Of a stretch of DNA of 25,079 bases, positions 10,521 to 15,396 are shown one piece after another. The stretch comes from a virus (taxonomy: Duplodnaviria > Heunggongvirae > Uroviricota > Caudoviricetes), in IMG/VR virus record IMGVR_UViG_2671180296_000013, positions 1-25,079 of that record. The stretch is one strand, 5' to 3'. The notes beneath the pieces are model-generated. The model made no database searches, was not told the DNA's origin, and was given only the letters and a program-made list of their open reading frames with translations. Numbering within the stretch: the first letter of the stretch is position 1; every line of letters begins with the position of its first letter. Both the position numbers and the translations under genes were made by a program.

Positions 10521-10694
10521 TCATTCCCGAACCACCTTGAAACCGAGCCTTTCCAGGTATTCAATGAATGCCTCGATAGATAAAATTACATGATCATCAG
10601 GAATTAACGTTGCGTAGATAACTTCCCCATTCTCAACGCGCACAGCATAGAGGCCATTTTCACTAAAAATTTCACGCAATTCTTCGATTTTCAT
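10521..10694 (-). CDS. Small hypothetical protein (57 aa)
   Basis: Hand-translated: MKIEELREIFSENGLYAVRVENGEVIYATLIPDDHVILSIEAFIEYLERLGFKVVRE, TGA at 10521-10523, AGGA about 9 nt upstream. Too short for the supplied track. Confidence 0.35.
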   Translation of the reverse strand: MKIEELREIFSENGLYAVRVENGEVIYATLIPDDHVILSIEAFIEYLERLGFKVVRE

Positions 10695-10849
10695 CAGCAG
10701 AATCCTTCCGGATAATTAGCACTCCCCTGTTTGGGGTCCATCCCTCTTCTCCCTGCGCGCTAACTAAGCAATATGATTCTATTTACTCCAAACGGCCCCT
10801 CAAGTACCACAACCAAAGGAGTACACAAAAAGCTAATCAACTACGCTGC

Positions 10850-10877
10850 ACAACAAAAAACCCGCCGAAGCGGGTTA
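10850..10877 (-). terminator. Intrinsic terminator (minus strand) downstream of hok
   Basis: Stem aacccgc (10859-10865) pairs with gcgggtt (10870-10876), loop cgaa; on the minus strand it is followed by TTTTTTGTTG. Confidence 0.6.
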
Positions 10878-10944
10878 AGTGCGGGTGCGTTGAGGATGCC
10901 TGACACATCAGAGGTGGCGAGGGATTTCTCCCCCGCCTGGTCTC

Positions 10945-11100
10945 TTACTCCTCAGGTTCGTAAGCTGTGAAGACAGCGACCTCCGTCTGGCCGGTTCGGA
11001 TTCGTACCTCGCAGAGGTCTTTCCTTGTTACCAGTGCCGTCACTATGACGGTTAAACAGATGACGATCAGGGCGATTAGCATCGCCTTTTGCTGCTTCAT
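10945..11100 (-). CDS. hok: Hok/Gef-family type I toxin (51 aa); the overlapping upstream frame to 11157 is mok-like
   Basis: MKQQKAMLIALIVICLTVIVTALVTRKDLCEVRIRTGQTEVAVFTAYEPEE is a single transmembrane helix plus periplasmic tail and matches Hok/RelF-type peptides as I recall them. Confidence 0.8.
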   Translation of the reverse strand: MKQQKAMLIALIVICLTVIVTALVTRKDLCEVRIRTGQTEVAVFTAYEPEE

Positions 11101-11274
11101 AGCCTGCTTCTCCTTGACCTTTCGGTCCGTAAGAGGCAATCTATATGTGACGAGCATATAGGGGCCTCACTTTGTACTGACCCCAAAAAGTTGGACAGTT
11201 AAACACGAGGCAGATAGCCTCAAGCACCCGCAGCAATTCTACTTAACTCTGCCGTTACAGCAAACCGTTTTCGC

Positions 11275-11298
11275 CCGATATGGGAATTCCCATATCGG
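11275..11298. repeat. Perfect 24-bp palindrome ccgatatgggaattcccatatcgg in the hok upstream region
   Basis: Directly read; exactly self-complementary and centred on GAATTC. Confidence 0.8.
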
Positions 11299-11382
11299 AA
11301 TGAATTCAGTTCACCTGGCGAGGCTTAGCGTACAATTTTTTCCGTTTTGTGAGCTGCCCCTACATGCCGCTGGCGCGGCATC

Positions 11383-11414
11383 CGGAAAAAGAATCCACGT
11401 CCTGAAGGACGTGG
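11383..11414 (-). terminator. Intrinsic terminator (minus strand) immediately after the binding-protein gene
   Basis: Stem ccacgtcc (11395-11402) pairs with ggacgtgg (11407-11414), loop tgaa; on the minus strand it is followed by ATTCTTTTT. Confidence 0.6.
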
Positions 11415-11420
11415 AGGATG

Positions 11421-12179
11421 TCAAGTGCCTTTCCTGGTCCAGCCATATTTTTTGAATGCAGGCGCCGCTTCATCGGTTTGTAGCCATTCTGCAAATCGAC
11501 GGGTTTCATCATTTGCATCCTGACGTACTGTAATGTTCATATCACGCCATATCACGTAGTCTGGCGCTATTTCCACGACATCACCAATTTCTGGATTACT
11601 GGCTGCCCAGTCAGCCCAGGTTATCCAGACATCTGCTTCAGGCTGATTCTCAAGAGCCTTACGTGCAGTTCCGCTGTTGGGCGCATATAAAATAATATTT
11701 TTTCGGATTGCGGCGACAGTTTCTATATTCCCTTTACGTCCGGCAATATCTTCCCAGACGCCAGTGCCTGATGTATTACTGGTACCACCACCATCATTAA
11801 CAATTACGCCAATCCCGGGTCTGGTCAGGTCGTCAATACTCCGGATATTTTTAGGATTACCTTTCTTTACCAATAAAATACTTTTTCGCAGATAAAGAGG
11901 CTGAATATCTTTTTCACTGAAGCTGTCTTTATGGTCCCGAATGATAGCCAGAGCAGATTGTTCTGATGCGCCAAACAAGATATCTGCATTTTTTTTGGCA
12001 TCTTCATTCCATTTGTTCTGTGGGCCGTAATGAACGTTCACTATAATACCTGTTTTTTCGGCATAAAGTTTGGCTGCATCAAGCAAGGCTGTATGCGGGC
12101 CACCAGGACCATACAGATTGATATCAGCATAAGCAGCAGAAGACAGGAATATTAAAAAACCTGCCATTATGTTCCTCAT
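11421..12179 (-). CDS. Secreted periplasmic substrate-binding protein, ModA-like (molybdate/tungstate-type PBP fold), orphan
   Basis: 252 aa with signal peptide MRNIMAGFLIFLSSAAYA; overall layout and C-terminal FKKYGWT resemble ModA-type binding proteins. AGGAG SD, own terminator, AT-rich upstream region, and no adjacent permease or ATPase genes. Confidence 0.55.
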   Translation of the reverse strand: MRNIMAGFLIFLSSAAYADINLYGPGGPHTALLDAAKLYAEKTGIIVNVHYGPQNKWNEDAKKNADILFGASEQSALAIIRDHKDSFSEKDIQPLYLRKSILLVKKGNPKNIRSIDDLTRPGIGVIVNDGGGTSNTSGTGVWEDIAGRKGNIETVAAIRKNIILYAPNSGTARKALENQPEADVWITWADWAASNPEIGDVVEIAPDYVIWRDMNITVRQDANDETRRFAEWLQTDEAAPAFKKYGWTRKGT

Positions 12180-14279: not shown

Positions 14280-15396
14280 CGCGCCAATCTGTGCAATCCA
14301 GAGCTTCGATGGTGCGGCCCCGTTCTTCCGGGTCCAGCGGTTCGAATAAACCTCCCCCATGAGTTCCCACAGCTTCCACGCCGTTTCCGTCGCTGATAAA
14401 TCCGTTTTCACGTTCCCACTGCTCACGTGCTGCCCGAATTTCCTGAACTGCCCGTGATGCGGTGCCACCTGGTGCTGCTGCATAGTTTGCCCCCTTGCTG
14501 ACTGGTTTAACCTGCGCCCTGACGTGATTTACGTGACGGGCGAATTTCTGCTCCCACTGAACCTGCGTGAAAACTTTCCCCTCCGCTGCCCAGTAGTCCC
14601 GGAAGGCGGCAAGTTCAGCAGGTGTAAATTCCGGCTCAGGAAGAGCCATCCCCCACAACGCAGCCCGTCGTCGAAAATCCCGTGACGGATACCAGCTATC
14701 GCTCATCGGGAATTTCCCGATGGGTTCGCTCAGGCCTTCCAGGTAATCAGGTTCCGCTGTCTGCAACGGCACGCCATTTGCCTCACTGGCCGGAGCACTC
14801 TCGCGCACGCGCGCGTTATGTGTGGGGTTTATATATCTGTTATCTGTTATCTGGATACCGCATGACAAAGCGTTAGCCTTATCCTTAGGCTTATCCTCAG
14901 GCAAAGGGATTGCCTTATCGAATGCCATCCCCAAAGCCTCAGAAACCCCGTAGGACGCGGCTCTCAGCGATTCCCTGGCCTCCCATTTGAGAGGGCAATC
15001 AGGAATTAAAGCGAATGCCTTTGCCCAAGATTTAATGACATTTATCGAGTTTGGCGGATTGTGTTTCGCAGCATTCGGGAGCCAAAAAACTCTGGCTTTG
15101 ATATCTGCTTTCACCATGCCAAGATTCATGGCTTCGCCTAAGGCTAAGTCAAAGGCTTCGATATCCCACCCCAACTCTTCAGCCATTGCTGCCCGCCCGG
15201 CTTTAAACAACCCAGGAATAATCCCGGTAAATGGACTGGTCAGCAGATAAATAAACAAACTCTGTCCACTTGGAGGCAGAGGAGATAACGCCCTAAATTT
15301 GGGATCATCCCATATCGTTATTTTTACCTTGCGATAAGGCTCATTGTTTGCCTTAGTTTTTGGCATGGGATTTGGCATGTTTTTAGCCTTAACCAT
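14272..15396 (-). CDS. Replication initiation protein (O-like functional position), contains iteron-like repeats
   Basis: Large ORF directly upstream of and coupled to the P-like gene; ATG at 15396 with GAGG SD (the track start at 15450 is a TTG); internal direct repeats at 14830-14920. Confidence 0.5.
   Translation of the reverse strand: MVKAKNMPNPMPKTKANNEPYRKVKITIWDDPKFRALSPLPPSGQSLFIYLLTSPFTGIIPGLFKAGRAAMAEELGWDIEAFDLALGEAMNLGMVKADIKARVFWLPNAAKHNPPNSINVIKSWAKAFALIPDCPLKWEARESLRAASYGVSEALGMAFDKAIPLPEDKPKDKANALSCGIQITDNRYINPTHNARVRESAPASEANGVPLQTAEPDYLEGLSEPIGKFPMSDSWYPSRDFRRRAALWGMALPEPEFTPAELAAFRDYWAAEGKVFTQVQWEQKFARHVNHVRAQVKPVSKGANYAAAPGGTASRAVQEIRAAREQWERENGFISDGNGVEAVGTHGGGLFEPLDPEERGRTIEALDCTDWRDD
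14830..14920. repeat. Iteron-like direct repeats (ATCTGTT x2-3; GCCTTATCC-type x3 with a DnaA-box-like TTATCCTCA) inside the O-like gene; candidate origin
   Basis: atctgttatctgttatctgg at 14835-14855; gccttatcc, ggcttatcc and gccttatcg at 14874-14918; an adjacent GC-rich then AT-rich stretch. Confidence 0.4.

Follow-up and report, generated by a model that had tools for sequence, protein, structure and literature searches.

The early-right (nin) region of a rac/lambda-like prophage carries a hok-type toxin gene whose antisense partner is hard to find: a preliminary description could recognize neither a sok gene nor its terminator with confidence, and pointed to an exactly self-complementary 24-mer upstream of the toxin. 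This raises the question of whether toxin, antisense RNA and palindrome belong to one functional module. We analyzed the whole stretch of DNA (25,079 nucleotides, hereafter the window) and propose that two unrelated things very probably lie side by side here, a decaying hokD-type type I toxin-antitoxin allele and a free-standing copy of a palindrome otherwise found in KilA-N genes. The hok portion of the locus is ordinary, and the palindrome family is the interesting portion.

The toxin gene hokD lies downstream of the adhesin gene paa. The corresponding locus of E. coli RM9088 (NZ_CP042298.1), in which hokD is annotated at 1554579-1554734, is 99.9% identical to the window, and hokD is annotated in 5,031 of 5,426 E. 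coli genomes as well as in Stx and lambdoid phages. The hok side of the locus comprises the following elements:

10945..11100, minus strand: hokD toxin gene, 51 aa (Pfam HOK_GEF, identity to K-12 HokD, annotation in RM9088)
10945..11157, minus strand: mok-like open reading frame, 70 aa, from the ORF list, sharing the hok frame (ATG 11157-11155; GAGG 11168-11165)
10853..10876, minus strand: intrinsic terminator of the hok mRNA, a stem at 10859-10876 followed by a T-run (terminator scan; kept in other alleles)
10880..10902, minus strand: fbi (fold-back inhibition) box, complementary to the hok mRNA 5' end
11206..11229, minus strand: hok mRNA 5' end with tac and the ucb (anti-SD) hairpin GAGGC-UAUCU-GCCUC, kept in all aligned hok loci
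11236..11264, minus strand: hok promoter, -35 TTTGCT (11264-11259), 17-nt spacer, -10 TAGAAT (11241-11236)
11385..12179, minus strand: paa (AcfC-family adhesin), a separate cargo gene (Pfam SBP_bac_11; annotation in RM9088 and O157)
11394-11415, minus strand: paa terminator stem (terminator scan)

The 51-aa peptide had been taken for a Hok/Gef membrane toxin, and both a profile match (HOK_GEF, PF01848: 82.9 bits against a cut-off of 22, E = 1.2e-23) and comparison with hokD/relF, to whose E. coli K-12 product it is identical at 51/51 residues, bear this out. The overlapping upstream frame that had been noticed opens at ATG 11157 with a GAGG Shine-Dalgarno (SD) sequence 8 nt before it; it runs in hok's own frame, not a different one, and its product is an N-terminally extended Hok. 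By alignment, it is positionally homologous to mok of plasmid R1 hok and of hokA, hokB and hokC. In the ESC818 allele, a 1-nt indel turns this frame into a short ORF whose end, AUGA, overlaps the hok start, which argues for translational coupling of hok to the mok-like frame over a function of the mok peptide. The strong terminator reported about 70 nt downstream is also there, its stem starting 68 nt past the hok stop codon.

The regulatory elements of the mRNA, using tac, ucb, dcb and fbi as defined in PMC9841398, can be placed as well. Inverted repeats join the fbi box to the 5' end (10880-10888 with 11224-11232, 9/9; 10890-10902 with 11211-11223, 10/13), and the predicted minimum-energy folds of the window mRNA and of the intact O157 mRNA both contain this 5'-3' tac-fbi pairing. 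In the predicted fold, ucb GCCUC (11210-11206) pairs with the mok SD GAGGC; alternatively, GAGGC and GCCUC form a hairpin with tac. Transcription of hok would start at about 11229, where the match to the Rfam sok family (RF01794) also begins. In six different prophage contexts, conservation of the hokD module reaches upstream as far as the hok promoter block and no further; the -35 box is weak, and the promoter is absent from the output of a consensus promoter scan.

Upstream of the promoter lie two further elements:

11275..11298, no strand: perfect 24-bp palindrome CCGATATGGGAATTCCCATATCGG, 12 + 12 without a spacer, 12/12 pairs
11299..11315, minus strand: conserved flank GAACTGAATTCATT, which travels with the palindrome

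The 24-mer is as unusual as the preliminary description held: it occurs once in the window, and 100 shuffles gave 0 matches at up to three mismatches. Neither chance nor a sequencing adapter explains the palindrome: many genes contain it in frame and at a single homologous position, and it is found with hokD in 577 complete E. coli genomes that carry paa, as well as in some paa-less prophages. Its hairpin has a predicted energy of -18 to -19 kcal/mol as RNA and -11 as DNA. The features of a Rho-independent terminator are lacking, the palindrome being followed by GCGAAAAC and AATGAATT on the two strands with no U-tract and being absent from the terminator scan. No Rfam family covers it (the best match is the MS2 hairpin, E = 8), and a search of an incomplete literature library for the sequence or its peptide, and for KilA-N together with a palindrome, found no description.

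KilA-N is a widespread, poorly understood DNA-binding domain. The window palindrome is identical to the commonest allele of a family residing inside KilA-N genes, where it is read as DMGIPIS. We define this family as a 22-24-bp dyad with the center GG(A/G)AT(T/C)CC and fully complementary arms. The same 22-24-mer is found inside KilA-N (BstA-like) genes of many phyla, at a fixed position and in two reading frames, with at least 80 matches in a search across phyla and at least 10 unrelated contexts among viral contigs. The proteins that bear it match Pfam KilA-N (E = 4e-27) and PADLOC BstA (E = 3e-21).

The palindrome in these genes is maintained at the level of the nucleic acid, which is evident from the forced choice of synonymous codons, from its use in two reading frames and from compensatory arm changes. 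Near-palindromic DNA is used by 135 of 146 encodings of DMGIPIS; counted by distinct genes, 23 of 24 have the near-palindromic form, where the codon usage of these genes predicts 0.00046. In Bacteroidota KilA-N genes, the same DNA is read in a second frame, as RYGNSHI. When homologues were collected without reference to the site, pairing extended to 89% of stem cells, and compensatory changes were seen at 7 of 10 pairs. Doubly changed cells number 44, compared with 15.7 +/- 4.4 in shuffles, while three stem cells are changed on one side only; none of 500 shuffles reaches the observed score. The covariation score is 0.380 at the palindrome and at most 0.082 in slid controls, and only 2 of 6,638 control windows are comparably self-complementary. 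The covarying unit is a 10-bp stem with a 4-nt loop, variation being concentrated at loop positions 11 and 14. The peptide motif is ruled out as the cause of the DNA identity by the codon test, by the second frame and by the presence of DMGIPIS in only 20 of 120 close homologues. A point against our account of the palindrome is that Gly-Ile-Pro, conserved in the protein, likewise dictates the invariant center GGAATTCC. The idea of a mosaic or recombination joint gained no clear support from a comparison of upstream with downstream identity at 106 KilA-N loci, in which only a few Nostoc pairs were discordant, owing to truncated copies.

Other copies stand free of such genes. They lie just after stop codons or form arrays of different alleles in non-coding DNA; overall, the palindrome is found in either orientation, and also inside genes of other kinds. 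The window copy is of this kind, being intergenic and outside the fixed KilA-N-domain position, as are the Dhillonvirus and array copies; a tblastn search for KilA-N genes was negative for the window, the RM9088 locus and the Dhillonvirus phage 'rolling'. The window palindrome would be a leftover or decoy copy with no demonstrable role in hok expression.

Whether this copy does anything is a separate matter. It may be a functionless relic of a KilA-N gene that once stood divergently beside hok, left behind by deletions and the insertion of paa, a reading that we hold to be plausible though somewhat doubtful. Phage vB_EcoS-613R10 has just such an arrangement, hok and a palindrome-bearing gene for a 257-aa KilA-N/BstA-like protein lying back to back 350 nt apart, and the paa-side flank GAACTGAATTCATT weakly resembles the sequence that follows the palindrome in KilA-N genes. 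In paa-less prophages (STEC299, O104:H4), a 34-aa ORF immediately precedes hokD and has this flank as its 3' end. A 1-nt mismatch in the STEC299 copy and a 14-nt deletion in that of ESC818 suggest decay. Against a relic, all 41 viral contigs with the paa-hok context have a perfect copy (a partly circular count, since they were found by an exact-match pattern), and an 84-nt block shows identity of 99% or more across 553 E. coli records. The recurrence of free-standing copies elsewhere, directly behind stop codons and in arrays of several alleles, is also an argument that such copies can have a function.

As for the element inside KilA-N genes, it would most likely act as DNA recognized by a KilA-N-type protein, by analogy with BstA. 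It would be bound in double-stranded or hairpin form and serve as a cognate site, with a logic analogous to that of the DNA-based aba element of BstA. The aba element lies within bstA itself, acts as DNA and suppresses the cognate BstA (Owen et al., 2021; PMC8585504). The palindrome is likewise a short DNA element embedded in the gene of a KilA-N/BstA-like protein, and the proteins that bear it resemble BstA in having an N-terminal KilA-N domain and in matching its C-terminal part. It is not aba itself: in BTP1, aba is an unrelated 63-bp sequence that spans the bstA start codon, has terminal CCCGCC direct repeats and is not palindromic (PMC8585504). The BTP1 bstA region holds no copy of our palindrome, whose proposed link to immunity is by analogy. 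Both this and the absence of a KilA-N gene from the window and from a palindrome-carrying Dhillonvirus phage speak against the cognate-site reading. A further candidate came from phage HK022. Its Roi protein binds a site in its own gene, and this site was rejected as a counterpart because the HK022 genome contains no copy at up to three mismatches.

Could the family instead work as RNA? An mRNA hairpin controlling the translation or stability of a potentially toxic protein would account for the strong covariation over a 10-bp stem and 4-nt loop, for the variation at loop positions 11 and 14 and for the stable predicted hairpin (z-scores of -3.6 to -4.4). We consider it unlikely: the stems contain almost no G-U pairs (3 G-T against 8 A-C mismatches among 300 stem cells, a small count) and have no sense-strand bias, and copies in both orientations, in arrays and in other genes do not fit a hairpin of the KilA-N message. 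Returning to recognition as DNA, we tentatively put forward, as a conjecture that may well fail, that GGAATTCC-centered palindromes represent an undescribed class of cis-element, a cognate recognition or self-immunity site that KilA-N/BstA-like proteins carry in their own coding sequence, whose free-standing copies (at hokD, in virulent Dhillonvirus and in multi-allele arrays) would be decoys against KilA-N-type abortive-infection proteins of resident prophages.

We now turn to the antisense side of the hok locus, where three elements can be delimited:

11114..11142, plus strand: putative sok promoter, -35 TTGACC (11114-11119), 17-nt spacer, -10 CAATCT (11137-11142)
11149..11172, plus strand: retained 5' part of the Sok antisense RNA (target-recognition end), with a putative start
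11173..11212, minus strand: IS150 right-end scar, 40/40 nt identical to the last 40 nt of IS150

Judged from these remains, the antisense sok gene is incomplete: its promoter-like hexamers are kept and its terminator hairpin is lost. We take the promoter to be the positional homologue of the R1 sok promoter; its hexamers are conserved in the O157 and ESC818 alleles, and the consensus promoter scan did not report it. The retained part of Sok matches the intact O157 allele without a difference as far as AAG (11170-11172); from there on the sequence is that of the IS150 end. A comparison of the IS150 right end in loci L004 and L005, together with a multi-locus hok alignment, resolves the scar into 33 IS-only nucleotides (11173-11205) and a microhomology shared with the hok leader (TGCCTCG, 11206-11212). 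It stands in place of 51 nt of native leader found in intact alleles, Sok terminator included, so that the 3' arm of the terminator hairpin and the U-tract (hairpin plus UUUU in intact alleles) are deleted. This agrees with the failure of the preliminary description to identify a sok terminator, as a plus-strand terminator scan of the sok region found no terminator-like site; sok had been missed because half of it is gone. The covariance-model search for Sok that it had suggested gives 37.9 bits at 11098-11229, below the Rfam gathering threshold of 59, while intact hokD alleles score 103.9 and 101.5 bits. No complete IS150 (IS3 family) is present, only the right-end 40 nt, with no transposase ORF in the region. 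The designation hok-type locus therefore holds for the toxin, the mok-like frame, the terminator and the tac/fbi complementarity, and fails for an intact hok/sok module, the IS150 end at 11173-11212 having replaced the 3' half of sok.

Other hok loci indicate how the scar may have arisen. A full IS150 sits at the homologous site, in the same orientation and with 3-bp duplications, in hokA (K-12-like strains), hokB, hokC and plasmid hok; the window shares insertion point and orientation with these, and the 3-bp target duplication AAG with hokA. IS150 would thus have inserted at a hot spot in the part of the leader that encodes the Sok hairpin, with AAG as target. A later deletion between the leader sequence CTATCTGCCTCG and the near-identical CTATATGCCTCG inside IS150 would have taken nearly all of IS150 and 51 nt of leader, leaving the 33-nt IS-end scar. 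The interrupted loci keep the whole 1.4-kb IS150, whereas the window has only its terminal 33-40 nt, and in the window, unlike in those loci, the deletion through 7-12-nt microhomology would have rejoined the hok promoter to mok/hok. The scarred allele could then still produce a stable, folded-back and translationally closed full-length hok mRNA, while its antitoxin RNA could be made only as an unterminated read-through antisense. With no Sok terminator and an antitoxin RNA limited to read-through, the module is probably a decaying allele rather than a functional addiction or defense system.

Comparison with known hok systems sets this allele apart. The toxin of the K-12 Qin hokD (relF) is identical, as are fbi, the terminator and the rem/ydfU-type neighbors downstream, and DNA identity is 98% starting 14 nt ahead of the start codon; upstream of that point, K-12 has relBE instead and lacks promoter, tac, mok and sok, whereas the window retains the promoter, tac/ucb, mok and the first part of sok, with an IS150 scar in the leader. 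The hokD of O157:H7 and of Stx and lambdoid phages ('hokW-mokW') shares gene and position, between the replication genes and the Q region, and O157 also shares the paa-palindrome-hokD arrangement at 98.6% identity; those intact alleles have the full leader and the Sok terminator hairpin, where the window has 33 nt of IS150 for 51 nt. With R1 hok/sok and hokC/mokC (gef), the locus shares a weak promoter, tac, ucb/anti-SD, mok, hok, fbi, terminator and an antisense promoter inside mok. The mok of R1 is in a frame other than that of hok (as seen in locus L005), while the mok-like ORF of the window is in the hok frame; mokC is in frame with hokC. R1 hok/sok is a proven post-segregational killer, and chromosomal hok loci are reported, in work cited in bioRxiv 10.1101/2025.08.07.668861, not to mediate killing.

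That the module is instead intact and working, with a sok that merely differs from the textbook form, seems to us quite improbable. In its favor, every element of the hok side is there along with the sok promoter region, and the strain is viable; a read-through Sok would lose none of its complementarity to the hok leader and might remain active. The 33 differing nucleotides, however, are an exact IS150 end rather than a divergent sok, the plus strand retains no hairpin with a U-tract, and the Rfam sok score of 37.9 falls far from the 102-104 bits of intact alleles. The scar junction is found in only 2 of 5,426 complete E. coli genomes, so it is not a maintained variant. Its presence in at least two sequenced strains indicates that the allele is not lethal, which fits a silent hok and a working antisense alike.

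The palindrome had also been proposed as a protein-binding site or an RNA fold-back element in the hok leader; a role as operator or activator of the hok promoter, or as a leader element, is very improbable, because, although it lies immediately upstream of the -35 box (center about 57.5 nt before the presumed start) and keeps company with hokD in the genomes counted above, it is outside the transcript (46 to 69 nt upstream of 11229), its distance to the -10 box varies among prophages (33 nt here, about 51 nt elsewhere), most of the hokD contexts examined lack it and ESC818 carries a deleted version, and the identical sequence recurs in unrelated genes, phages and phyla without hok. If it is a protein-binding site, it is possibly one of a KilA-N-type system rather than of a hok regulator.

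The gain for hok biology is modest: an account of why sok escaped recognition, and the record of a rare allele in which IS150 came in and then went out by microhomology. IS150 targets the same few leader bases in five different hok loci, pointing to a recurrent route by which these modules are disarmed. In the palindrome, a constraint on the nucleic acid shapes a protein, which is unusual: compensatory changes drag the encoded amino acids along. Should it be a cognate site, its arm bases would simultaneously specify four protein residues; should free-standing copies be decoys, a replicating phage that carries one would escape the KilA-N-type abortive-infection proteins of resident prophages. 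The palindrome offers a concrete candidate site for KilA-N binding and immunity experiments.

The hok gene lies in a rac/lambda-like E. coli prophage. Over 701 bases, the locus and its surroundings share 99.9% identity with the chromosome of E. coli RM9088, where the neighbors are recE/recT, kilR, replication proteins, the adhesin gene paa, hokD, DUF1367, the Q-region and lysis genes. All genes concerned are on the minus strand. The 51-aa Hok/Gef toxin of the preliminary description is borne out (ORF 10945-11100, Pfam E=1.2e-23), and the comparison with hokD proposed there shows identity to K-12 HokD. The overlapping upstream frame is an ORF that starts at ATG 11157 and, being in frame with hok, encodes a 70-aa extended Hok, while the downstream terminator, a hairpin followed by a T-run, begins 68 nt past the stop codon. 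These observations are correct and ordinary. We placed the hok elements from an alignment of the window with the O157:H7 allele, the paa-less hokD allele of ESC818, hokA, hokB, hokC and plasmid hok:

11264-11236, minus strand, weak hok promoter (TTTGCT, 17 nt, TAGAAT)
~11229, minus strand, hok mRNA start
downstream of this start, minus strand, tac/ucb hairpin (GAGGC-UAUCU-GCCUC)
11168-11165, minus strand, mok SD (GAGG)
11157, minus strand, mok start codon
11100, minus strand, hok SD and start codon
10880-10902, minus strand, fbi box

The fbi box pairs with the 5' end of the hok mRNA through complementary blocks (9/9 and 10/13), and this pairing is present in the minimum-energy folds of both the window mRNA and the intact O157 mRNA. 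The predicted pairing matches the published model, in which tac/fbi closure, with ucb holding the mok SD, gives way upon 3' trimming to tac/ucb pairing, mok translation and Sok binding (PMC9841398). Two mok configurations occur among hokD alleles: in the window and O157, mok extends hok in frame by 19 codons, and in ESC818 a 1-nt indel makes it a separate 19-codon ORF ending in AUGA over the hok start (L002:3180-3230 versus window 11100-11160). The ESC818 form is more in keeping with translational coupling than with a function of the Mok peptide. Through its in-frame mok, hokC/mokC counts among the closest relatives. They also include the intact hokD copies of O157 and Stx phages as well as K-12 hokD, which differs in having relBE in place of everything upstream of -14. 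A preprint describes hok genes as enriched in prophages and cites reports that chromosomal copies showed no activity when assayed for killing (bioRxiv 10.1101/2025.08.07.668861). ESC818 has an ORF6N gene upstream of hokD, and the stretch ahead of that gene (L002:2188-2385), a P1/P7-type antirepressor control region, matches the Rfam families of C4 antisense RNA, its a1/b1 targets and isrK.

Other features of the prophage are the following:

23344-23523, minus strand, RalA antitoxin RNA (216.9 bits)
10521-10694, minus strand, 57-aa ORF downstream of hok, without Pfam match
10776-10803, minus strand, promoter-like site (TTGAGG, 16 nt, TAGAAT) just upstream of the 57-aa ORF
11337-11380, minus strand, second small hairpin (ATGCCGC-GCCA-GCGGCAT) with an A-rich tract, between the paa terminator and the palindrome

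RalR/RalA, a type I system, is a second RNA-antitoxin system of the same prophage. The 57-aa ORF occupies the rem position of other prophages and in RM9088 only part of it is annotated as a pseudogene. By the lysis cassette, the RM9088 annotation also lists toxin cargo (a scabin-related ADP-ribosyltransferase, a subtilase-family AB5 binding subunit and an enterotoxin A/B pair), transferred from L001:14806-18518 of the homologous RM9088 prophage to approximate window positions ~4900-8650.

The window departs from intact alleles in the stretch that separates the ucb hairpin from the mok SD. A divergent sok is ruled out as the source of this stretch by 40 nt (11173-11212) identical to the extreme end of IS150. 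The same end belongs to complete IS150 copies upstream of hokB (L004), plasmid hok (L005), hokA (L006, L008) and hokC (L007), all of which share one orientation, occupy the homologous site of the leader and show 3-bp target duplications (AAC, CCA, AAG, ACC). Across five different hok loci (window 11170-11212; L004:1104-2555), IS150 is found at the same few leader bases, in the part coding for the Sok hairpin, a strikingly specific target. hokA shares the right junction of the window (…CAGTACA joined to AAGTGAGG), and the left junction lies within TGCCTCG, a sequence found both in the leader (CTATCTGCCTCG) and, 41-53 nt before the end, in IS150 (CTATATGCCTCG). Because of these two junctions, the simplest history would be that IS150 inserted into the hok leader and that a microhomology-mediated deletion then took ~1.4 kb of IS together with 51 nt of leader, leaving 33 IS-only bases; IS150-interrupted hokA would be a relative through this mode of decay.

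Among the missing 51 nt is GGCAGAUAG, which in the intact fold is the pairing partner of the 5' hairpin's CUAUCUGCC; read on the opposite strand, they also contain the Sok terminator hairpin's 3' arm with its UUUU. The preliminary description could not locate a sok terminator with confidence, and a terminator scan of the sok region found no terminator-like site left on the plus strand. Nor does the covariance model recover an intact sok: Rfam sok scores 37.9 bits in the window, below the cut-off of 59, versus 103.9 and 101.5 bits in intact alleles. Among 5426 complete E. coli genomes, the scar junction turns up in just two. This rare hokD allele bears an IS150 scar, and its sok is deprived of its terminator; judging from its sequence, the hok side looks able to make a closed full-length mRNA, which a read-through antisense RNA may still neutralize.

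Upstream, the reported self-complementary 24-mer (CCGATATGGGAATTCCCATATCGG, 11275-11298) forms a perfect, spacer-free palindrome; it occurs once in the window and no shuffle reaches it, in line with the remark that it is unusual for random sequence. Its proposed role as an RNA fold-back element of the hok leader does not hold, as it lies outside the hok transcript, on the upstream side of the -35 box. The conserved hokD module starts at about the -35 box in six prophage contexts, only some of which carry the palindrome; in ESC818 it is shortened by a 14-nt deletion, and it stands 33 nt from the -10 box in the window and ~51 nt from it in other prophages. The paa-palindrome-hokD arrangement occurs in 577 genomes. 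In the paa-less prophages of STEC299 and O104:H4 the order is 34-aa ORF, palindrome, hokD, and therefore paa inserted upstream of a pre-existing palindrome-hokD junction. The palindrome is real and non-random, and it is no hok element.

An exact-pattern scan found it in 52 viral contigs, mostly in the paa-hok context, with at least 10 unrelated flank contexts. In virulent Dhillonvirus phages it lies 20 nt past the helicase/primase stop codon among ~30-bp direct repeats, possibly an origin or regulatory region; in phage 'rolling' (L147:2440-2560, MN850575.1 ~15190-15300), where no KilA-N gene was found, it sits within three such repeats (GGCAACCAATGCGCGCAAAATTTAATCTTT-like). In several contigs of 27-69% G+C it falls inside long ORFs and always reads DMGIPIS. 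A one-genome-per-species scan gave at least 80 matches; those listed include Cyanobacteria, Bacteroidota, Bacillota, Alpha-, Beta- and Gammaproteobacteria, Chloroflexota, Spirochaetota, Verrucomicrobiota and others, and the majority of them are at one fixed position in KilA-N-domain genes. The proteins match Pfam KilA-N (E=4e-27), and those from enterobacteria and Dehalococcoidia additionally match the C-terminal part of PADLOC BstA (E=3e-21 and 9e-16, respectively). Beyond KilA-N genes, the same 22-mer is in frame as DMGIPIS in the interdomain linkers of unrelated phage early proteins (loci L151, L162, L183, L229, L161, L190/L060), namely an AAA_24 ATPase, a Prim-Pol primase-helicase, a Rha regulator and a ~2000-aa Azospirillum protein.

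In this family it is the DNA that is kept, rather than the peptide. When all synonymous encodings of DMGIPIS were searched, two near-palindromic ones accounted for 135 of 146 sites, and GAT ATG GG[AG] AT[TC] CCC ATA TCG is used in 23/24 distinct KilA-N genes (0.00046 expected from their own codon usage). Bacteroidota KilA-N genes carry the same DNA at the same domain position in another frame, reading RYGNSHI. Only 20/120 close protein homologues have DMGIPIS; others have DTGIPVS, DVGIPTS, DAGIPAS, VTGIPVT, ATGIPVA, SMGIPID and more, the variant residue pairs being exactly those that complementary arms would force. Homologue DNA retrieved through protein motifs downstream of the site, hence independently of the palindrome, gave 30 distinct 24-mers, with the further perfect palindromes CCGTTACGGGAATTCCCGTAACGG, CCGATGCGGGAATTCCCGCATCGG and GTGATACGGGAATTCCCGTATCAC among them; a parallel viral-contig scan added GGTCCATGGGAATTCCCATGGACC. 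Stem positions are Watson-Crick paired in 264/300 cases, versus 25% for 6638 control windows drawn from these genes, of which only two reach 8/9. Counting G-U, 89% of cells are paired and 7/10 pairs show compensatory changes; doubly changed cells number 44, versus 15.7 +/- 4.4 when shuffled (0/500), and the covariation score is 0.380, versus at most 0.082 with the partner slid. Covariation extends to synonymous positions (e.g., ATC…CCG versus ATG…CCC). When contexts were chosen by the 22-mer core (97 in all), 63% had a complementary outermost pair, all four pair types being represented, and complementarity falls to ~25-30% beyond that pair. An mRNA hairpin could also impose paired arms, but stem mismatches show no G-T excess (3 G-T, 8 A-C), which weakly favors a DNA dyad or hairpin.

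Different alleles of the palindrome also form non-coding arrays:

L141:591-666, three alleles within 80 nt
L170:2606-2704, three alleles within 80 nt
L224:1486-1728, three by scan and at least two more, imperfect, by eye
L211:4455-4496, two, adjacent
L153:2933-3086, Calothrix, two upstream of a KilA-N gene with an internal copy of its own

Array members are GGAATTCC-centered, and their AT-rich centers are conspicuous in high-G+C genomes. Because such arrays occur, stand-alone copies can likely be functional, with allele identity mattering. The window has one copy, of the commonest allele, and tblastn found no KilA-N gene there. In one phage, hok stands back to back with a KilA-N gene that bears the palindrome, showing how a KilA-N fragment could end up beside hok.

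The nearest precedent is BstA, a KilA-N abortive-infection protein neutralized with cognate specificity by aba, a DNA element in its own locus (PMC8585504). The likeness is one of logic and not of membership, since the aba sequence of BTP1 differs and BTP1 bstA lacks the palindrome. No description of this family was found in the literature searched. The palindrome beside hok is a member of a covarying family tied to KilA-N genes, in which it may serve as a cognate protein site, act as a decoy or be a relic.
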